A stretch of DNA of 30,276 nt from a virus. Positions 3,976 to 26,432 of this stretch are shown here, in pieces; the first letter of the stretch is position 1, and the number at the start of each line of letters is the position of its first letter. Under the pieces are notes generated by a model. That model worked only from the letters and a program-made list of their open reading frames with translations, searched no databases and was not told where the DNA came from. The position numbers were made by a program, and so were the translations under genes. The stretch is from IMG/VR virus record IMGVR_UViG_3300025584_000013; one strand, 5' to 3'.

Positions 3976-4341
3976 ATGATGAAACATGAAACAAGTGTTA
4001 CACGAGATGATGTGTATAGAGAATATAAGAACTACACTGATACGACAATTGATGCATTAGATTCTACTGTATATCCATTGGGTGTATTAGATGATACTCC
4101 ATCAGACTATAATTTAGATGCTGTATTGGATGTTGAGTATGATATGAAAGTTTTACTAAACTTATTAAATGGACTACCGTCGAGAGAATCACGTATTCTA
4201 AAAATGTATTTTGGAATTGGAATAGCTAATAGTCTGTCATTGTCTGATATAAGTGAAGAATTTGATTTGACGAGAGCACGGATTAGAATGATTAGGGACT
4301 CGGGACTAAAACGGTTAAGACATAGAGCGTCATTTATTTAA
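3976..4341 (+). CDS. Sigma70 region 4 domain-only protein
   Basis: C-terminus LPSRESRILKMYFGI...SLSDISEEFDLTRARIRMIRDSGLKRLRH aligns by eye to RpoD region 4 (LTPREAKVLRMRFGI...[29 protein letters not shown]). At 121 aa it has no room for region 2. Confidence 0.85.
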   Translation: MMKHETSVTRDDVYREYKNYTDTTIDALDSTVYPLGVLDDTPSDYNLDAVLDVEYDMKVLLNLLNGLPSRESRILKMYFGIGIANSLSLSDISEEFDLTRARIRMIRDSGLKRLRHRASFI

Positions 4342-4349
4342 AATAACAC

Positions 4350-4378
4350 TTGACTTTCTCATTAAGTAGTCGTATATT
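4350..4378 (+). promoter_or_regulatory. sigma70-like promoter
   Basis: TTGACT-N17-TATATT; spacer identical to the 3579 promoter. Confidence 0.85.
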
Positions 4379-4403
4379 AAGGTAACAAGAAAAGGAAAAA
4401 ACA

Positions 4404-4583
4404 ATGAAATACTCTAAATTAAAAACTCTATCTCGTGAAGGTATCCGAAAGGCATTAAAGAATAAAACAAGTAGGGAAGTATATGAAATGTATAACGGAT
4501 TAAAATACAGTGAAAAAAACTCATATAAGGGATTGGTAATTTGGTCGATGATTATTAAATTAAGCGGGAGTTATTCAAAATGA
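4404..4583 (+). CDS. Hypothetical basic protein, 59 aa (not in the ORF track)
   Basis: MKYSKLKTLSREGIRK...GSYSK*; promoter/RBS cassette upstream; ATGA overlap with the next gene. Confidence 0.75.
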   Translation: MKYSKLKTLSREGIRKALKNKTSREVYEMYNGLKYSEKNSYKGLVIWSMIIKLSGSYSK

Positions 4584-6575: not shown

Positions 6576-6599
6576 TCATAAAATAAATTAAAATAACAC

Positions 6600-6628
6600 T
6601 TGACTTTACCATTTATTGGTGGTAACTT
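6600..6628 (+). promoter_or_regulatory. sigma70-like promoter
   Basis: TTGACT-N17-TAACTT. Confidence 0.75.
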
Positions 6629-6653
6629 CATGTGTAAGGAAAAAGGAAAAAGA

Positions 6654-6839
6654 ATGAAACTGACAAAATTAGAATCGATTAGAGATGATTTGAATCGAGC
6701 ACTATATGAACTAGATAAATCAGATAAGAAATATATGGATGTGGATGAAATTGTACTCCATATAGAATTAGCTAAAAGAGATTTAGAATCATTAACAAAT
6801 AAAGGAAAAAACAATGAAACTGACAAAATTAGAAACTAA
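6654..6839 (+). CDS. Hypothetical coiled-coil protein (MKLTKLES...)
   Basis: AAGGA SD before ATG 6654; the track's TTG start at 6600 lies inside the promoter. Confidence 0.75.
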   Translation: MKLTKLESIRDDLNRALYELDKSDKKYMDVDEIVLHIELAKRDLESLTNKGKNNETDKIRN

Positions 6840-7556: not shown

Positions 7557-7737
7557 ACATTTACTAAAGGAATGGGTATAGGTTGGACGAGGTGGACGTT
7601 TCATAACACACCTTAACTATGGATACTACCCAGAAAAAAATAGACAGGTTGAGGGGTTACTAACTGACAACGAAGGTTTCCGTAACCCCAAAACTAATCG
7701 TGGTAAGCTAAATAATATTTTACTAAAAGGATATTAA

Positions 7738-7917
7738 ATGAAAACATATAAAGTAACAATGACGAAAATAGAAAAACAAACATTAAAAGATGCTATTGAT
7801 TATATAAAGTACTGTACTAATCAGATAGATAACGCTTCAGATGAAAAACTTGATACACTTGTACGTGATGTGAAAATCAACGGTGGTAAGCTAAATAATA
7901 TTTTATTAAGTAAGTGA
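7738..7917 (+). CDS. Hypothetical protein, 59 aa (not in track)
   Basis: AAAGGA SD; MKTYKVTMTK...GKLNNILLSK*. Confidence 0.7.
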   Translation: MKTYKVTMTKIEKQTLKDAIDYIKYCTNQIDNASDEKLDTLVRDVKINGGKLNNILLSK

Positions 7918-7935
7918 GTTAGGGTGATAGAATAA

Positions 7936-8154
7936 ATGAATACAGACAAAATAACAGAAGCAATAACAATATCATTAATGGGTATAGGATTAGTATTAAT
8001 GATAGGATTACTATATGCATATCCAGTAATGTGGCTATGGAACTGGTTAATTACAGATATATTTACACTACGTAGTATATCAGTAACAGAAGCATTAGGG
8101 CTTGTAGTATTGAGTGGCCTACTATTGAAAAGCTCAAGTTCTTCAAGTAAGTAA
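7936..8154 (+). CDS. Small membrane protein
   Basis: Two to three hydrophobic segments. Confidence 0.7.
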   Translation: MNTDKITEAITISLMGIGLVLMIGLLYAYPVMWLWNWLITDIFTLRSISVTEALGLVVLSGLLLKSSSSSSK

Positions 8155-8172
8155 GTTACACAGATAAAATAA

Positions 8173-8343
8173 ATGAATACAGACAATTTGACAGACTTCC
8201 CTGTTACAGAAAATAGAGCTACAAAAACTCTCAAATTTCTCGTCGAGAGGGGGGGGGTAGTTTGTCGTGAATGGCGGAACTATGACATAATGACAGACTC
8301 GTCAAGGTGGTTTTCATATCGAGGTCAATTTTTGGTTGTATAG
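8173..8343 (+). CDS. Hypothetical protein, 56 aa (not in track; spans a G9 tract)
   Basis: Shares 18 nt around the start codon with ORF 7936. Confidence 0.45.
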   Translation: MNTDNLTDFPVTENRATKTLKFLVERGGVVCREWRNYDIMTDSSRWFSYRGQFLVV

Positions 8344-8580
8344 AAACATGACACTATTACTCTATCTCTAACGAGATAAATAATAATATACGAGTGTAGG
8401 GGAAAGGAAATAGGTATAATGATTATATGAACTCTTATGAACGACATAAAACTCCCTATATTCGGTTGAATATTATGTGCGAAGTTTTTGTTGTTTTTGA
8501 GAATTTAGGTATATAGTTATTATCCAAGATGAATGTTGACCATCAACATTCTAAGTTATAAACCAAATAAGGAGCTCATC

Positions 8581-8658
8581 ATGAGTAAACCAAAAGAAGC
8601 ATCATTTCTTACCTACGAAGAGGCAGCTAAAGTTATCGGAATCGATCCAAAGTCAATA
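8581..8658 (+). pseudogene. N-terminal half of an excisionase/MerR-like HTH protein
   Basis: AAGGAG SD; MSKPKEASFLTYEEAAKVIGIDPKSI, with sequence unrelated to the HTH thereafter. Confidence 0.75.
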
Positions 8659-8659
8659 A

Positions 8660-8926
8660 CCACGACCTTTTATGTTTGATAAGGGATTGATAAGTCAGGT
8701 TGGTAATTTTGATTATATTGATGTTGTTTCAAAAATATACATTGATTTAATTGAAGGTGATGCTCAAGGAATTTATAATGTGGGAACTGACTTGAAAACT
8801 ATGTATGATTTAGCAAAACAAACACGAGATGATGTTGTTCCAACTAATGTAAAGTTTTTCGATACAATGCCATTAGATGTGAGTATGGATTTAACTAAAT
8901 TGGGTGAGTTTTATGATAAAAAATAA
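8660..8926 (+). pseudogene. C-terminal fragment of an RmlD-like (dTDP-sugar reductase/epimerase) gene
   Basis: PRPFMFDK...QVGNFDYIDV...GIYNVGT...MYDLA...DVSMD. No N-terminal Rossmann GxxGxxG; in-frame TAA at 8657-8659 immediately upstream. Confidence 0.7.
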
Positions 8927-10607
8927 AAAAGTGGCATTTGTTTGTGCGTTACACCAAAGTGAAACACATAGGCCGAATGGATTTGAGTTGTTTAATGATT
9001 ATTTAACATCAATATATACTTCATGTAAGTATCCATTTAAATTATTTGCTTTTGATAATGCATCTGATGATGAATTTGAGATAGAAAATTGTCCTGATAA
9101 TTTGAGTATAATTAGAATAGAGGATCAATATGTTGGTGGGTGTACATATGCATGGAATGAAGGAATTAAAATGTCAATAAAAGATGACTATGATGTTGTT
9201 ATCATAACTTCTGATGACCAGATATATGACGAGTCTGTAAATAATTTTGTTGATACAATTTTAACACATGAACTCAAAGATAATGCTATATTTGGTCCAT
9301 TGAGTAATGAACCTGGTCCTGGTCATTCCAACCAAAAATCAGATGAACCAAGTGGTAGAATTTTTGAAATTCCTGGTGATGGAACACCGGAGGGAAATTT
9401 AAATGGGTTTTGTTTGGCGATGACGAAGGAATCTATTCAAAATAACTATTTTGATTCTGATGGTAATTTCTTTAATACTGGTCAAGAATATATTTGGGGT
9501 AAACAGGATGTAGAAGTTCAGACGAGAGTTGGACATTCAATAGTTGTTGGAACTTGTTATGTTTATCATAAAAAACAGGGTGGGTGGCGTGAAATAAGAG
9601 AAGGTTTAAGAAGAAATCCCAGTAAAAATAAATTAATACCAGTTAGATATTCTAAAAAGGAAATAAATATAAATCTTTTTGAAGAATTTTTTAAAGAATG
9701 TGGAAAATATACTGGAAAAGAAAAAACGGATCTTGAAGTATCAGGAATATGGGAGAGAGTAATTTCGCGTCATACAACATCTGTTGTTAATGTGTTTGAC
9801 CATATGGAGAAAGAAAATTTAATTAAACTGAAAGAAATTTATGAAAATTATTATGCCCAAGGAGTTTCCGAAGGAGCGAGTTCTGGTAAAGCCTTATCTA
9901 ATTATCAGTATAAATTTAATAAAGCTAAAAGAAATATTGGTAGAGTTAATGATCTTCGTAAACATTTAAATTTAACGGAATCTGAACCACACGATGTCTA
10001 TAAATTATTATTTAAAAAATATAATATTCCCGATGTCATTAATGTTGGACAAACTTGGGGTTGGCAATATGGAGATAATTTTGTTCATTTTGAATTGGCA
10101 GATTATCTTTATTTTTTAGACATAATAATTAGAATTTTAGATGAATATAATTTAGATAAAACAATGTTCATAGGAGATGGTTCAGGATTATTAAGTACAT
10201 TAGTGTATAATAATTATAATATTAAGTCATCTCACCAAGTAGACCTTGGTCATTTTTTATTGAAACAATATTTAACAAACTATGGTGGTGAAGTGAAAGT
10301 GGGTTATCATTATGCTGAAAACTTTCAAGTAGATTTCATTCACGATTCACAAATATTAATTAATCAAGATTCTTTTCCTGAGATGACAACGGAATCTGTA
10401 GAAAAATATGTAGAAAATGCCATACTGAATAATGTTTCTTATATATTGTCATATAATAAGGAAGTAAAATTTGAAGGTGGTTATAAACACAGTGATTTTC
10501 GTGCATCAATTATTAAGCATGGTTATATTTCAAAGCATAGATATAATTCTGTAATCAGAGAGGGTTACGCGATTGAATTATTTGGATTAGAGAAAATAAA
10601 GGTTTAA
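8904..10607 (+). CDS. Fusion of an N-terminal GT-A/GT2-like glycosyltransferase domain and a C-terminal putative sugar O-methyltransferase (SAM-dependent)
   Basis: AFDNASDD, AWNEGI and IITSDDQ (GT2-like); FIGDGSGLL and INQDSFPEM (methyltransferase-like). ATG 8913 is an alternative start. Confidence 0.65.
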   Translation: MSFMIKNKKVAFVCALHQSETHRPNGFELFNDYLTSIYTSCKYPFKLFAFDNASDDEFEIENCPDNLSIIRIEDQYVGGCTYAWNEGIKMSIKDDYDVVIITSDDQIYDESVNNFVDTILTHELKDNAIFGPLSNEPGPGHSNQKSDEPSGRIFEIPGDGTPEGNLNGFCLAMTKESIQNNYFDSDGNFFNTGQEYIWGKQDVEVQTRVGHSIVVGTCYVYHKKQGGWREIREGLRRNPSKNKLIPVRYSKKEININLFEEFFKECGKYTGKEKTDLEVSGIWERVISRHTTSVVNVFDHMEKENLIKLKEIYENYYAQGVSEGASSGKALSNYQYKFNKAKRNIGRVNDLRKHLNLTESEPHDVYKLLFKKYNIPDVINVGQTWGWQYGDNFVHFELADYLYFLDIIIRILDEYNLDKTMFIGDGSGLLSTLVYNNYNIKSSHQVDLGHFLLKQYLTNYGGEVKVGYHYAENFQVDFIHDSQILINQDSFPEMTTESVEKYVENAILNNVSYILSYNKEVKFEGGYKHSDFRASIIKHGYISKHRYNSVIREGYAIELFGLEKIKV

Positions 10608-10608
10608 A

Positions 10609-10745
10609 ATGAAAAAAGTTTTTTTAGATTTGGGAGCGAATACCGGTCAATCGGTAGATTATTTTAGACAGACATATGAAGGCGCTTATCGATTGGATAA
10701 ATCTGTAATAGGTAGGTCAGAGACTAATGAATTTGAAATTCATTT
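10609..10745 (+). pseudogene. N-terminal fragment of a FkbM-family methyltransferase
   Basis: MKKVFLDLGANTGQSV motif I, then ...NEFEIH where the family pattern breaks off. The frame closes at TAG 10786-10788. Confidence 0.7.
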
Positions 10746-10892
10746 TCAGGATTTGCTAAGAAGCACAATATATCTCGTGGTTCTTTAGTTATTGGTGGTA
10801 GAAATCGCCGAGTTGTATCGGAAAGTGATTTCATGTCAATAGTAGAGATGAAGAACTACAATCGTGAGAATGATACTGTAGTCTGGGACTAA
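10746..10892 (+). pseudogene. C-terminal half of the HTH protein begun at 8581
   Basis: SGFAKKHNISRGSLVIGGRNRRVVSESDF...VVWD* lacks a start or SD for this segment and completes an excisionase-like fold when joined to 8581-8658. Confidence 0.7.
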
Positions 10893-10904
10893 AACCCAAC
10901 GGGA

Positions 10905-10944
10905 GTGTTGAGTGGGGTTTATCCCCACTTGACACCACTTTTTT
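10905..10944 (+). terminator. Intrinsic terminator
   Basis: 13-bp stem GTGTTGAGTGGGG/CCCCACTTGACAC followed by a T-run. Confidence 0.8.
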
Positions 10945-11021
10945 GTGTCGTTTCATAAAAAACGTTATACTTATATAAAAGAGAAAGGTTATATTAGGCC
11001 GTTAGGCCTTTCACCCACACT

Positions 11022-11240
11022 ATGAAAAAACCATTAATGACAATCGGAATAGAAGAAATTTCAGAAGAACAATATAATCACTTCTTCTATAAGTGGTTAT
11101 ACACTTATGGAGGAACATCGGATGTAAAGACTTTGCAGGAATTTATCAATGAGTATGATTCAGATGTATATGGAGATGTAGATATTTATTCTACTTCTGT
11201 ATGTCCTTGTGTTATGTGTATAGGAGAAGATATAGTATGA
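11022..11240 (+). CDS. Hypothetical protein
   Basis: 72-aa ORF with ATGA overlap to the next gene. Confidence 0.65.
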   Translation: MKKPLMTIGIEEISEEQYNHFFYKWLYTYGGTSDVKTLQEFINEYDSDVYGDVDIYSTSVCPCVMCIGEDIV

Positions 11241-11466
11241 AGTCACGAATAGAAGTTATTAAAGAGCTTGTTAAGAAGTATCCTAATGACATCAGTTAGG
11301 TAGTGCAGTTAGACGATTTTTAACAGAAGATTATTGGAATGATAGCAGTAATACTTTAAGAGTTCTTGAATATCGAGAGCTTGGAGAATTTAAAACTCTT
11401 ACATCGTATGGTCAGGATCATAAAGAGGCAGAACAAGAATGGTTAAAGAGGTTAAATAAAATATAA
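11237..11466 (+). pseudogene. Frameshifted hypothetical gene (1-nt loss near 11291)
   Basis: MKSRIEV...KYPND continues plausibly as QLGSAVRRFL...RLNKI* in the -1 frame. Confidence 0.6.
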
Positions 11467-11633
11467 TGGATACATTAGTAAAAAGGTTATCATCTATTTT
11501 AACGGCCTTGGAAGATGTAGGAAGTATAGTAATTCCACCAGAAGTTCTACTTGAGTTAAAATCTCTTATACAAGATGTAACCGTGAGTAAATGTAGTAAT
11601 GGTGTTTTTTGTCAAATGGAGAAGAAGTGGTAG
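11466..11633 (+). CDS. Hypothetical protein, 55 aa (not in track)
   Basis: TAATG coupling to the upstream frame. Confidence 0.6.
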   Translation: MDTLVKRLSSILTALEDVGSIVIPPEVLLELKSLIQDVTVSKCSNGVFCQMEKKW

Positions 11634-11684
11634 TACGTCTCGTCGCAGACGGGACGCGTATAACCGACCATAGGGATTTTTAAA

Positions 11685-12077
11685 ATGGGTAAGAAACCAG
11701 ATAATGTTGCTGACACTCCAGGTATATTACCTTATGGTAGTAATATTGGAGCACCTGCTATTACACCAACAGATATTAATAGTTGGAAAGATTTAAGAAT
11801 AGGTTCGGCTAATAAGTATTTTGAAACTCGATATGATGAGATAAAACAAGAATACATTAAGTTGATGCAGGAGTATGAATGGAATAAACTTGTCTATAAT
11901 GCCAAGTATAGTTTTCAACCTGTTGTAGGGAATACTTACTATTTATACCAACACGACAGGGGACATTTATGGTTAAGTCTTGTAGAGCCTAACCGATGGG
12001 AACAGATATTTATAGGTGCATTTAAATTGACTTCTAATGATAAGTGGGAAAGGGTAGAATGGGATACAATAAAATAA
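11685..12077 (+). CDS. DUF2452-like protein
   Basis: VYNAKYSFQPVVGNTYYLY...LSLVEP..W...GAF pattern. Confidence 0.7.
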   Translation: MGKKPDNVADTPGILPYGSNIGAPAITPTDINSWKDLRIGSANKYFETRYDEIKQEYIKLMQEYEWNKLVYNAKYSFQPVVGNTYYLYQHDRGHLWLSLVEPNRWEQIFIGAFKLTSNDKWERVEWDTIK

Positions 12078-12080
12078 CAC

Positions 12081-12109
12081 TTGACACTCTCATATATTCT
12101 TCGTAAGAT
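12081..12109 (+). promoter_or_regulatory. sigma70-like promoter (TAAGATCAA subclass)
   Basis: TTGACA-N17-TAAGAT. Confidence 0.75.
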
Positions 12110-12169
12110 CAAGGTATGAATAAAAAACCACACATCTATAATTGGATACAGGATAAGGAGAAATGATAA

Positions 12170-22136: not shown

Positions 22137-22592
22137 ATGAGAAATAAACAATACATAGAAAAAAATAGAACCGAATTCAACCACAGAATAAAACAATTAA
22201 AACACATTTTAGATGATGTAAATTACTTACACCAAGATTCTACATATAGAGAATTCATTGGTAGTATGTATCACGCAATAAATACTGGTAGAAAAATCAC
22301 ATCATTAATGGAATCATCAATTACTAAAATAGTTAAGTCATATAAAACATGGCTCAATACAATAAACGACACATCCTATTTAGAAAATAAAACAATATTA
22401 TTAAATAAGATTACTATGGTTCGTACCATGTTAGAACGAGCACCATATACAAGTAATTTCAAATATGAAAAAGAAATATTCATAGATTCACTTTACAACC
22501 AAGCTCGTAATAGAGGTTCATTATCACCCAAACAAAAATCAGCATTAAACAAAATGTATAAACAATATAAAAAGAAAGTTGAAAATATTTGA
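22137..22592 (+). CDS. Hypothetical basic helical protein
   Basis: 151-aa ORF starting 9 nt after the -10 box; no SD. Confidence 0.75.
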   Translation: MRNKQYIEKNRTEFNHRIKQLKHILDDVNYLHQDSTYREFIGSMYHAINTGRKITSLMESSITKIVKSYKTWLNTINDTSYLENKTILLNKITMVRTMLERAPYTSNFKYEKEIFIDSLYNQARNRGSLSPKQKSALNKMYKQYKKKVENI

Positions 22593-22601
22593 AGAAAGTA
22601 C

Positions 22602-22630
22602 TTGACTTTCTCATTATTTTGTCGTAAGAT
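22602..22630 (+). promoter_or_regulatory. sigma70-like promoter (TAAGATCAA subclass)
   Basis: TTGACT-N17-TAAGAT. Confidence 0.8.
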
Positions 22631-22638
22631 CAAGAGTA

Positions 22639-24873
22639 ATGAGAGAGAAAACCCAAATGAAAAAAATGAAATTATTTAATCCAATGGCACTTCGTGAGAA
22701 GTATTCCAGTAAAAATCTAAACAAGACTAACAATTTTAGTTCATTTTGGTTGGATGAAAATTGGGGTGAAACTCATGATGAAGAAAAGAAAAGTGGAACT
22801 GATTTAATAGCTCTCGCTTCATATAGACGAGCTATTGGAAACTTCGTAAATATTGTAACTGGAAAAGATATTCCCGTTACATTTACAGCACAAGGTGATT
22901 CCTTTACTGATGGTAAGAAAGTTACTATTTCGTCAAAGTTGGATGATAAACTTTTTGATTCAACTGTTGGGTTAGCACTTCACGAAGGTTCTCATATACT
23001 ATTAAGTGATTTTGACTTCCTAAAACAACTTGAAGTTAATATACCAAAAGAATATTTAGATAGAGCTTTCACTAAAGGTTATAGTGAAATGGATTCTAAA
23101 ATTCATATTAAGAATTTATTAAACTTTGTAGAAGATAGACGAATTGATTATCATATATTCAGTAACTCACCTGGATATAAAGGTTACTATCATTCAATGT
23201 ACGAAAAGTATTTTAGAGCAAAAGTAATTGATAAAGCTTTATTGTCTGATGAAATGACCGATGAAAATTGGGATTCATATATTTTTAGAGTTATCAATTT
23301 TACTAATTCAAATACTCGTTTAGATTCATTAAATGGATTAAGAGAGATTTGGAATATACTTGATTTGAAAAATATTTCAAGATTGAAATCAAGTGAAGAT
23401 TCATTCAATGTGGCACTTGAAATGTATCACGTAATTTTAAATAACATTCTTGATGGAATTGAAAAAACTGATGATGAAACTGGTGAAGTTTCTTATGAGA
23501 AAGCAGATGGTAGTGGTTCTACTGATGGTAATAGTGAAAGTGGTGAAAGTGAATCCCGTGAAATGTCTGATGATGAATTTGAAGATTTGTTATCAGCCGT
23601 TGAAAATGGTGATGTAGAATTTAGTGAAGAAAAATCCGGAAATTCTGTATCTGTTCCTATGGATAGTGGTGAAGAATCGGATGAAGATGGGGAAAGTTCT
23701 TCTACTGAAAGTAGTGATGAAAGTGGTGAAGAAGATTCTTCTAATAAAAGTGGTGAAGAAATTGAAACTAAAAAAAGTGAAGTAACACTTTCAGATTCAC
23801 AAAAGAAATCACTTGAAAACGCAATCAAGAAACAAAAGAAATTTATGGATGGAGATATCCAGAAAAAGAAAGTTTCCAAAAAAGATAAAGCTTCCATTGA
23901 CGCTGTTGAAAATAGTGGTATGAGTTATAAAGAAGTTGGTGTAGATTTAACTGATAGGTGGACTGGTAAAAAACTTGGTAAAAAAACCAAATGTATTGTA
24001 GTTAAGAAATTAACCAAAGAACTTATTGAAAGTGGAACTATCAATATGTTAGGTAGAAGTTATCACAATGATACTAACGAAGAATCTATTACAGAAGGTT
24101 TAAGACTTGGAACTATCCTTGGTAGAAAACTTCAAGTTAGAACTGAATCCCGTGAAACAAAATATACCAGAAAAAATACCGGTCGTATTGATAAAAGATT
24201 AATAGCCGAACTTGGATTTGGAAATGATGGTGTATTTAGTCAAACATTTATTGATTCTTTCCCAGACGCTTTCCTTCATATTTCCATTGACGCAAGTGGA
24301 AGTATGTCTGGAGATAAATGGAGAAAAACCATGAAGTCAGTTACTTCTATGGTAAAGGCAATTGATATGATTGAAGGTGTTGATGTGGTTGTTTCTTTTC
24401 GTTCTACTCAGCATAGTTATGGTAGAAGTACTGAAGATTATCCAATTATATTAATCGCTTATGATTCACGTGTAGATAGTTTAGTTAAAGTTAAAACACT
24501 TTGGAAATCCATAAATGTAGCTGGAACTACTCCAGAAGGATTATGTTATGAAGCTGTTATGGATGAAATGGTCGCTGGTGGAACTGATAAAGAATCTTAT
24601 TTCTTAAACTTTTCCGATGGGATGCCAATGTTTAGTAATGGTGTCGTTGATTATTATCATGATACCGCAATCAACCATACTAAATTGATGGTAAAGAAAA
24701 TTAGAGAACGTGGAATAAAAGTTCTTTCATATTACATTGGAGATAGTTATGATGGAAATAGATATATGGGAGATTTCAAAAGAATGTATGGTAAAGATTC
24801 TCAGTTTGTTGATGTAACTTCTGTAACAGCCGTATCAAGAACTATGAACAAAAAATTCTTGGAGAAGAACTAA
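22639..24873 (+). CDS. CobT-like vWA protein: N-terminal HExxH metallopeptidase-like domain, acidic linker, C-terminal vWA
   Basis: ALHEGSHI and NFVEDRRID; S/E/D-rich linker; MIDAS SIDASGSM; GTTPE; NFSDGMP. Confidence 0.88.
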   Translation: MREKTQMKKMKLFNPMALREKYSSKNLNKTNNFSSFWLDENWGETHDEEKKSGTDLIALASYRRAIGNFVNIVTGKDIPVTFTAQGDSFTDGKKVTISSKLDDKLFDSTVGLALHEGSHILLSDFDFLKQLEVNIPKEYLDRAFTKGYSEMDSKIHIKNLLNFVEDRRIDYHIFSNSPGYKGYYHSMYEKYFRAKVIDKALLSDEMTDENWDSYIFRVINFTNSNTRLDSLNGLREIWNILDLKNISRLKSSEDSFNVALEMYHVILNNILDGIEKTDDETGEVSYEKADGSGSTDGNSESGESESREMSDDEFEDLLSAVENGDVEFSEEKSGNSVSVPMDSGEESDEDGESSSTESSDESGEEDSSNKSGEEIETKKSEVTLSDSQKKSLENAIKKQKKFMDGDIQKKKVSKKDKASIDAVENSGMSYKEVGVDLTDRWTGKKLGKKTKCIVVKKLTKELIESGTINMLGRSYHNDTNEESITEGLRLGTILGRKLQVRTESRETKYTRKNTGRIDKRLIAELGFGNDGVFSQTFIDSFPDAFLHISIDASGSMSGDKWRKTMKSVTSMVKAIDMIEGVDVVVSFRSTQHSYGRSTEDYPIILIAYDSRVDSLVKVKTLWKSINVAGTTPEGLCYEAVMDEMVAGGTDKESYFLNFSDGMPMFSNGVVDYYHDTAINHTKLMVKKIRERGIKVLSYYIGDSYDGNRYMGDFKRMYGKDSQFVDVTSVTAVSRTMNKKFLEKN

Positions 24874-25162: not shown

Positions 25163-25191
25163 AAAAAAGTGAAAAAAACTTAAAAAAAGCC

Positions 25192-25220
25192 TTGACTTTA
25201 TCAAATATTATTCGTAAGAT
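25192..25220 (+). promoter_or_regulatory. sigma70-like promoter (TAAGATCAA subclass)
   Basis: TTGACT-N17-TAAGAT. Confidence 0.8.
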
Positions 25221-25229
25221 CAAGTAACA

Positions 25230-26432
25230 ATGAGAGATAATGTAACTAACTTAAAAGGAGTCATTCAAATGACAAATACAGTTGTAAAAATAGAAATGTC
25301 GGGTAACCGATTTAACGCTTGGGATATCGATGGTAATAAACTTACCTCGGAAATCTCAACTTCCACTCGTAGAGGAGCGTTTGAAGCCGGAATGGCATTA
25401 GAGAAACGTGAAGGTAAAGGTGGGAGAACTTATTGGTGGAAAGTTCCAATGAGTAAATTTGACGAAGCTTCTGTTCCAGTAATGGATATGAGTTCTGTTG
25501 ATATTCCAAAAGAACATTCAGAAATGTTGAACTTCATTCATAGTTCTTTTAAACTTAAACCTAATGGTTTGGTGATGAAAGAATTGAAGTGGAAATATCT
25601 TGTCCGTTCCGCAGTCCGTGGAAAAAACATTTTAATGACTGGTCCGTCCGGATGTGGTAAAACTATGGCAGCTAAATCGTTGGTAAACGCTTTAGACCGT
25701 CCTGACTTTTACTTTAATCTTGGAGCGACACAGGATCCTCGTTCAACTTTGATTGGTAATACCCACTTTGATAAAAAGAAGGGAACTTACTTTTCAGAAT
25801 CACATTTCGTTTCCGCGATAAAAACTCCAAACGCAGTTATTCTGTTGGATGAATTATCAAGAGCTCACCCCGACGCTTGGAATATTTTAATGACAGTTCT
25901 TGATGAAGGTCAAAGATATCTTCGGTTGGATGAAGCCGATGGAACTGAAACAGTTTCAGTCGCAGAAGGAGTTACATTCGTCGCGACCGCTAACATTGGT
26001 AATGAATACACTTCTACTCGTGTTATGGATAAAGCCTTAATGGACAGATTCACCATCGTAGAAATGGATGTATTGAATAATGAAGAAGAATTGGGATTAC
26101 TATCCTATATGTTTCCTCATGTAGATAATGGATTACTGAAATCAGTTTCGGAAATTGCACATTCAACTCGTGTTGAATCACGAAATGAAACCGGTAGAGT
26201 TTCAAGTGGAATTTCAACCAGAACTTCTGTTGAAATGGCTGGATTACTCTATGATGGATTTGGATTAGATGAAGCAGCTGAAGTTACTGTCTATCCACAA
26301 TACTCTAATGATGGTGGTATGGAATCAGAACGAACTTACGTGAAACAGTTAATACAGAAGTTTGTTACTGATGGTAGTTCTGATGACTTGTTTAATGAAA
26401 GTGAAATCGAAAACTCAGGAGATATTAGTTAG
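25230..26432 (+). CDS. MoxR/CbbQ/CobS-type AAA+ ATPase (start likely ATG 25269)
   Basis: Walker A GPSGCGKT, Walker B ILLDE, ATANIG and arginine finger ALMDRF; AAGGAG SD before 25269. Confidence 0.92.
   Translation: MRDNVTNLKGVIQMTNTVVKIEMSGNRFNAWDIDGNKLTSEISTSTRRGAFEAGMALEKREGKGGRTYWWKVPMSKFDEASVPVMDMSSVDIPKEHSEMLNFIHSSFKLKPNGLVMKELKWKYLVRSAVRGKNILMTGPSGCGKTMAAKSLVNALDRPDFYFNLGATQDPRSTLIGNTHFDKKKGTYFSESHFVSAIKTPNAVILLDELSRAHPDAWNILMTVLDEGQRYLRLDEADGTETVSVAEGVTFVATANIGNEYTSTRVMDKALMDRFTIVEMDVLNNEEELGLLSYMFPHVDNGLLKSVSEIAHSTRVESRNETGRVSSGISTRTSVEMAGLLYDGFGLDEAAEVTVYPQYSNDGGMESERTYVKQLIQKFVTDGSSDDLFNESEIENSGDIS

Follow-up and report, generated by a model that had tools for sequence, protein, structure and literature searches.

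A gene for a small winged helix-turn-helix protein of an uncultured phage interrupted by a piece of a sugar-modification operon, probably through recent illegitimate recombination

In the Hendrix model, phage mosaicism reportedly arises by illegitimate recombination. The morons of lambdoid phages are extra genes that possess their own promoter and terminator and are inserted between other genes. The textbook explanation of phage mosaicism is that genes are captured through illegitimate recombination (PMC2993671). For T4-related phages, Petrov et al. (2010, PMC2993671) proposed illegitimate 'genetic additions' via invasion of phage DNA pools, by which route such phages are expected to gain genes. 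Intronless homing of the free-standing seg and mob endonuclease genes of T4-type phages is described in those passages of PMC2993671 that cite Belle et al. 2002 and Liu et al. 2003. The locus reported here lies in the IMG/VR virus record IMGVR_UViG_3300025584_000013 (the window, meaning the whole stretch of 30,276 nt that was analysed), in which a gene encoding a small winged helix-turn-helix (HTH) protein is split by a 2,087-bp piece of a sugar-modification operon. The most probable origin, to which a probability of about 0.85 is given, is a recent capture of this piece by illegitimate recombination, which is a further instance of a known process and involves no new kind of element or mechanism. 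Illegitimate capture of a DNA block had been proposed in a first-pass annotation made from the sequence alone, and the empty-site allele, the truncated donor genes at both ends and the lack of mobile-element features described below are in agreement with it. The features of the locus, including open reading frames (ORFs), are as follows, lengths of proteins being given in amino acids (aa).

8569–8574, + strand: Shine-Dalgarno (SD) sequence AAGGAG, read from the sequence, 6 nt upstream of the HTH ATG
8581–8657, + strand: 5′ part of the HTH gene, codons 1–25 plus the first two bases of codon 26, with the ATG at 8581
8658–10744, + strand: inserted block of 2,087 bp, a contiguous sugar-modification operon piece that is missing from 11 empty-site loci
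8660–8926, + strand: 3′ fragment of a gene for an RmlD-type nucleoside diphosphate (NDP)-sugar reductase/epimerase, 88 codons plus stop, without its own start or SD at the break
8913–10607, + strand: intact 564-aa glycosyltransferase (GT)-methyltransferase ORF, its ATG at 8913 overlapping the stop of the RmlD fragment
10609–10744, + strand: 5′ fragment of a gene for an FkbM-family methyltransferase, 45 codons (10609–10743), its ATG 1 nt past the stop of the 564-aa ORF
10745–10892, + strand: 3′ part of the HTH gene, the last base of codon 26 plus codons 27–74 and the stop (10890–10892), without its own start codon
10905–10945, + strand: intrinsic-terminator-like hairpin and T run, with a stem at 10905–10935 of 13 pairs, 7 of them G-C, closing the transcription unit

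Deletion of nt 8658–10744 restores an ORF of 74 aa. The empty-site DNA reads ...AAGTCAAT/TTCAGG... and ...CCAAAGTCAAT/TTCAGGATTT... (slash, insertion point), whereas the window has ...GTCAAT, ending at 8657, followed by AACCACG... and, farther on, ...GAAATTCATT, ending at 10744, followed by TTCAGG.... Compared with the empty-site DNA, no target base was lost and none was gained at the insertion site, and the identity of the window to the empty-site contigs breaks off at 8657. Owing to a 1-nt T ambiguity, the insert can alternatively be placed at 8657–10743, its size still being 2,087 bp. The first-pass annotation had joined 8658 to 10746, which misses the true joint by 1 nt yet predicts the same 74-aa protein, Ile being encoded by ATA as well as by ATT; the SD sequence and the terminator that it had placed upstream and downstream of the gene correspond to the AAGGAG at 8569–8574 and to the 13-pair stem with its T run. 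The insertion lies between residues 26 and 27, inside the predicted second HTH helix. The 5′ part, identical to the N-terminus of the intact proteins P0197 and P0196, now runs into the insert and reaches a stop after 32 aa, and no second copy of the HTH gene was found in the window. The interrupted allele is unable to yield the full HTH protein. The earlier claim that the regulator had been inactivated thus holds, the cut being in the second helix, whereas the claim that a glycan-modifying gene had come under the HTH promoter is conjectural, no convincing promoter having been found.

Whether the two halves ever occur as one protein had been posed as a test of the split, and they do. Contig counts for proteins are from an exact, letter-for-letter look-up of ORF products across metagenome assemblies. 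The intact 74-aa protein was found on at least 43 metagenome contigs (42 plus 1), the rejoined sequence being 100% identical to P0197 (42 contigs, the longest of 48,748 bp) and to the C-terminal 74 residues of P0196. Twelve small relatives sharing 73% to 99% identity covered 97% to 100% of the joined 74 residues, and all 12 read ...PKSISGFAK... (KSISGF) across the joint. A scan of JGI metagenomes revealed 11 loci (L019–L029) with the uninterrupted gene in the same flanks. The closest of these, L021, was 99.3% and 99.6% identical to the two sides of the window, and the window without 8658–10744 gave a single alignment with L021:1–1662, with 99.70% identity over 1,664 columns including 3 mismatches and 2 gap columns. 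Neither an intact HTH allele nor an exact match to the left junction was found in IMG/VR. Loci L001–L017, considered as syntenic loci, were rejected, as they share with the window only the gene at 11685–12077 and have no HTH gene. One intact HTH allele, P0192 (90 contigs), is listed at NCBI as a hypothetical protein of Candidatus Woesearchaeota archaeon (MBT7558726.1); this label probably reflects a phage contig binned into an archaeal metagenome-assembled genome.

The interrupted and uninterrupted alleles are both common, each occurring on dozens of contigs. The 59-aa chimeric ORF that joins the FkbM fragment to the HTH gene (10609–10788) was found on 48 contigs, the longest of 48,700 bp, the 84-aa ORF of the RmlD fragment on 46, and the exact 564-aa ORF on 39, all three in JGI, Logan and ENA, while the 48-aa left chimeric ORF (P0165, window 8533–8676) was found on 11 contigs, all from JGI. 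Clustering at 90% identity files P0165 under a 402-aa '2-octaprenyl-6-methoxyphenol hydroxylase', which looks like a clustering artefact of a very short sequence with no real relationship. The RmlD-fragment ORF had one and the same sequence on 46 of 46 contigs, and the gene stumps show neither stop codons nor decay; these observations indicate that the insertion allele is near-clonal and young. In P0174, present on one contig, the right chimeric ORF carries the A-to-G change of the other common HTH allele (NVS instead of NIS), which may represent a flank exchange near the joint or a recurrent transition.

The insert had been described in the first-pass annotation as starting within an RmlD-like gene, of which the C-terminal part is left, carrying one intact GT-methyltransferase gene, and ending within an FkbM gene, of which the N-terminal part is left, and each of these assignments was confirmed. 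Neither the fragments nor the 567-aa ORF matched anything in direct Pfam and PHROGs searches, and the identities came via full-length relatives and a structure model. The RmlD fragment aligned to the C-terminal ~88 residues of proteins of ~232 aa (209–236 aa) with the domains PF04321 (RmlD substrate-binding) and PF01370, with identities up to 92%, and these relatives read ...IIRATHK-PRPFMFDKG... where the fragment begins. The 45 residues of the FkbM fragment shared 82% to 84% identity with residues 1–45 of the 188-aa P0014 cluster (PF05050; TIGR01444, E 4e-19); full-length relatives continue as ...NEFEIH-CFEANP past the break, and the fragment now reads out of frame into the 3′ half of the HTH gene. 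The left end, after ...ATHK of the RmlD-like gene, and the right end, after ...FEIH of the FkbM gene, are thus arbitrary intragenic points. P0208, one of the FkbM relatives, is encoded on a contig of 233,852 bp for which 'bacterium' is the sole label.

The intact 564-aa ORF is predicted, from alignments and a structure model, to encode a GT2-like domain fused to a domain with the fold of class I S-adenosylmethionine (SAM)-dependent methyltransferases. Residues ~1–234 are GT2-like and share 72% identity with the stand-alone protein P0015 and 60% with genes of L030 and L031 (229–234 aa); profile matches of this half were weak, namely PF00535 (GT2) for the L031 protein and TIGR01556 (rhamnosyltransferase), E 0.0028, for the window protein. 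Residues ~240–564 match stand-alone proteins of 317–342 aa (58% identity to P0016, 61% to that of L018), the motif FIGDGSG being conserved in the methyltransferase-fold domain. The model of this C-terminal domain had a predicted local distance difference test (pLDDT) score of 91.7, and its best PDB matches were all class I SAM-dependent methyltransferases, including the sugar O-methyltransferase EvdMO1. None of the 150 best representative proteins covered both halves; 561-aa fused forms exist that are 92% identical to the 564-aa protein, so the fusion is not unique to the insertion allele. The two domains are encoded by separate genes in related viral contigs, at L030:7006–7710 and L031:7033–7722 for the GT and at L018:5986–6939 for the methyltransferase.

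The three pieces of the insert retain tight operon spacing, native gene overlaps included, and the G+C profile is a little lower in the insert than in its flanks. A related order is present in L030 and L031, where a DegT gene is followed by a full-length RmlD-like gene and a GT gene, the latter two 60% to 66% identical to those of the insert. No relative of the 567-aa ORF was found in GTDB genome contigs, and IMG/VR contained no relative of the fused GT-methyltransferase ORF closer than that of L018; FkbM relatives in IMG/VR shared at most 41% identity, and none adjoins other insert genes.

Features of mobile elements were not observed in the insert. Pfam and PHROGs detected no transposase, recombinase or homing endonuclease domain in its ORFs, and none of these ORFs contained a GIY-YIG, HNH or LAGLIDADG endonuclease domain. 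No terminal inverted or direct repeats were present at 8658/10744, and comparison with the empty-site DNA showed no target-site duplication; the domain, repeat and empty-site checks are therefore consistent with the first-pass annotation, in which transposase, inverted repeat and target duplication had been noted as missing. A search of Rfam at E ≤ 1 found no intron family in the insert, only a chance match to a small nucleolar RNA. Group II introns have GUGYG...AY ends and group I introns end in G; since the insert starts with AACCACG and ends with TTCATT, its ends are not group I or group II intron boundaries. The inverted pair I25 (8650–8665 and 10775–10790, complementary at 13 of 16 positions) was rejected as a chance occurrence, ranking 25th of 126 in this AT-rich DNA.

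At the right joint, an exact overlap of 1 nt lies within a 7/10 match between the last ten bases of the insert and the ten target bases before the break. A match as good as 7/10 occurs at 0.7% of window positions, and guidance of this joint by microhomology is suggestive but weak. At the left joint, the first 10 bases of the insert match the next 10 bases of the target at only 1 of 10 positions; protein alignments suggest a donor sequence of ...ACN CAY A/AA CCA... there (slash, break), which would have only a displaced CA match to the target.

Capture by illegitimate recombination would have proceeded by copying or ligating an internal piece of a phage-type operon, in the order rmlD-like, GT-methyltransferase and fkbM, into the HTH gene. 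The joining would be non-homologous or microhomology-assisted, in a one-step repair or replication accident, with the right joint possibly guided by the short imperfect match between GAAATTCATT of the insert and CAAAGTCAAT of the target. Candidate routes are repair of a double-strand break in the HTH gene by copying the operon of a co-infecting phage, end-joining of a stray fragment into such a break, and a replication template switch out and back. A single event is favoured over two independent crossovers because the target is undamaged, and two crossovers seldom leave the target intact. Read-through from upstream would then transcribe the 564-aa gene, with its own SD sequence serving for translation; the lineage would have gained an extra glycan-modifying enzyme while losing the HTH protein, and the insertion allele would now spread by vertical descent as well as by ordinary homologous recombination in the flanks.

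Several points weigh against such a capture. The full rmlD-GT-fkbM donor cluster, a search for which had been suggested along with the first-pass annotation, was not recovered, the nearest relatives being 92% (RmlD-like protein, 561-aa fused forms) and 82% to 84% (FkbM) identical. Among the outcomes of illegitimate recombination, insertion that leaves the target unchanged is not the most frequent one. The 7/10 match at the right joint is weak and post hoc, and 19 insert positions match the target 10-mer equally well. Upstream of the 564-aa gene no clear promoter was found, and its expression by read-through is presumed solely because no strong terminator precedes 10905.

As to the protein encoded by the intact gene, HTH_17 (PF12728) was matched by all 12 intact relatives at E ≤ 1, the best E value being 1.3e-5, and PF12728 is the precomputed Pfam annotation of P0010; the window's allele (P0001) scored 15.8 bits, below the Pfam gathering cut-off of 27 for this family. 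The AlphaFold model of P0197 (mean pLDDT 71.5) has strands (E) and helices (H) at E9–11, H12–19, H23–32, E49–51 and H52–62, corresponding to a short strand, a helix-turn-helix, a beta wing and a C-terminal helix. Its best Foldseek matches were BldC (TM score 0.75 on the target), RacA and MerR-family DNA-binding domains, with weak E values of ~0.01. The strand-helix-helix-wing-helix layout of the intact 74-aa protein resembles that of BldC and of the small winged-HTH proteins of the Xis and MerR groups. Judged from the model, the broken gene probably encodes a small DNA-binding regulator of the MerR/BldC/Xis-type winged-HTH fold, which is more likely than an excisionase. A scan of the large ORFs, rather than of every ORF, in these 30 kb of genome revealed no integrase, which makes an excisionase identity unlikely; the earlier designation 'excisionase-like' is therefore appropriate at the level of the fold and not for the role.

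The same HTH gene has undergone a second, independent rearrangement. In P0013 and P0206, which occur on 10 contigs, a HAD-phosphatase-like N-terminus of 73 aa is followed in frame by the final 33 HTH residues. At the fusion point both parents have an (S/G)GRN word, and the C-terminal part is equivalent to window 10785–10889; the unfused HAD protein P0207 reads ...FSGRNDR.... The existence of this fusion suggests that the HTH gene is dispensable and is situated in a recombination-prone stretch. Marine viral contigs frequently carry the unfused HAD gene (L116–L188), but no HTH gene was found near it in these, and no HAD gene was found in the window. Formation of the fusion by a simple deletion between neighbours in the L116–L188 phages was ruled out, as no HTH gene is present there.

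A repeated promoter cassette (AAAATAACACTTGAC...TCGTAAGATCAA) is located ~1.2 kb downstream of the HTH gene. The window and L021 share 99.6% identity as far as this cassette and diverge fully just past its -10 region, at ~12112, with different genes following. The copies are:

12040–12125: repeated promoter cassette, equivalent to L021:1590–1675
4332–4408, 6576–6659, 22582–22671 and 25173–25237: further copies of the cassette in the window

This arrangement looks like homologous shuffling at repeated early-promoter cassettes, adjoining the illegitimate event. The 130-aa gene of unassigned function at 11685–12077 has homologues sharing 41% to 82% identity in 17 marine viral contigs, which have no other gene order in common with the window; it travels widely as a single gene.

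The window has a G+C content of ~30%, its long ORFs are nearly all on the + strand, and the large ORFs scanned include those for PhoH, a phosphoesterase, an AAA ATPase and a methyltransferase-like protein. It looks like part of a large, AT-rich, uncultured marine phage. In the GenBank phage collection, window 7700–11700 had no DNA match and the intact HTH protein had no tblastn match. The neighbouring AAA ATPase was only 52% to 56% identical to those of the nearest isolates, which indicates that no cultured relative is available.

Among other explanations, a false joining of the insert into the HTH gene by the assembler had been raised as a worry in the first-pass annotation, and the uncultured source of the window speaks for it. 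This is already close to refuted and deserves next to no credence: the exact junction-spanning ORFs occur on 48, 46 and 11 contigs, i.e. on dozens of independently assembled ones, the first two in JGI, Logan and ENA alike; two false joins would be needed that resume at the very next base of the same gene; and at the joints no exact k-mer above 1 nt is shared. A mobile cassette of fixed termini that a site-specific nuclease or recombinase acting in trans inserts, and perhaps also excises with precision, along the lines of intronless homing or a cassette system, would account for the nucleotide-precise presence or absence of the block between phages ~99.5% identical, for the undamaged target and for the commonness of both alleles, and a loose (T)CA(A/T)T-like word is found at both insert ends and in the target, the left end being derived in part from the THK codons of relatives. 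It is nevertheless very unlikely. Both ends lie inside truncated genes, as expected for a random cut of an operon and not for the termini of an element, and the insert possesses no nuclease or recombinase gene, terminal repeats, target duplication or structured RNA. All chimeric FkbM-fragment ORFs in the 90%-identity cluster bear an HTH-derived tail, so only one site has been seen, and the flanks of L021 differ from the window by point changes, which marks L021 as a separate lineage and not an excision product. Nothing was found in support of the reversible excision that had been offered as an alternative in the first-pass annotation.

A long shot related to such a cassette is that large marine phages possess a precise insertion route that has gone unrecognised, with the block as its cargo. 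A candidate would be a trans-acting nuclease cutting at the loose TCAAT-like word, followed by templated repair that adds pieces of operons and leaves the target unaltered. If so, the high frequency of the interrupted allele would reflect selection swapping a regulator for a glycan-modifying enzyme, and the HAD-HTH fusion would be another product of the same route. It is also conceivable, albeit rather improbable, that the insertion arose once by illegitimate recombination in another phage and arrived later by homologous recombination through the HTH flanks, in which case the event would be older than the 99.7% identity of the flanks suggests. The A-to-G change of P0174 fits a flank exchange near the joint, the split between the window and L021 at the shared cassette (~12112) points to active homologous shuffling, and donor-like relatives are only 84% to 92% identical. 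Yet the change in P0174 could be a recurrent transition, and the single RmlD-fragment sequence on 46 contigs, free of stops and decay, indicates a near-clonal, young allele; moreover, a later arrival differs from direct capture in timing only.

Fresh captures for which the states before and after and base-exact joints are available are uncommon, especially in uncultured marine phages. The locus thereby offers a test case for the way in which a piece of a foreign operon can enter a phage gene and leave the target undamaged, for the speed at which gene stumps decay, and for whether the added glycosyltransferase-methyltransferase compensates for the loss of a small DNA-binding protein.

Compared with the known systems, the clean presence or absence of the block between close relatives, and its ability to spread by repair through homologous flanks, resemble seg/mob homing as described in the cited passages on those genes, whereas the insert, unlike the elements described there, has no endonuclease gene and ends in truncated genes. 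As with morons, a single extra gene of slightly different G+C content is present in an otherwise near-identical genome; unlike morons, the block lies inside a gene, comes with a gene stump on either side and has neither an evident promoter nor an evident terminator. The closest likeness is to illegitimate mosaicism: foreign DNA was joined without meaningful homology, the cuts ignore gene boundaries, the gene that was hit is dispensable and the donor looks like another phage. Usual mosaic joints are old and eroded and lie between diverged genomes, whereas at this locus the alleles before and after the event are both at hand, with flanks of ~99.7% identity, joints that are exact to the base and an unchanged target.

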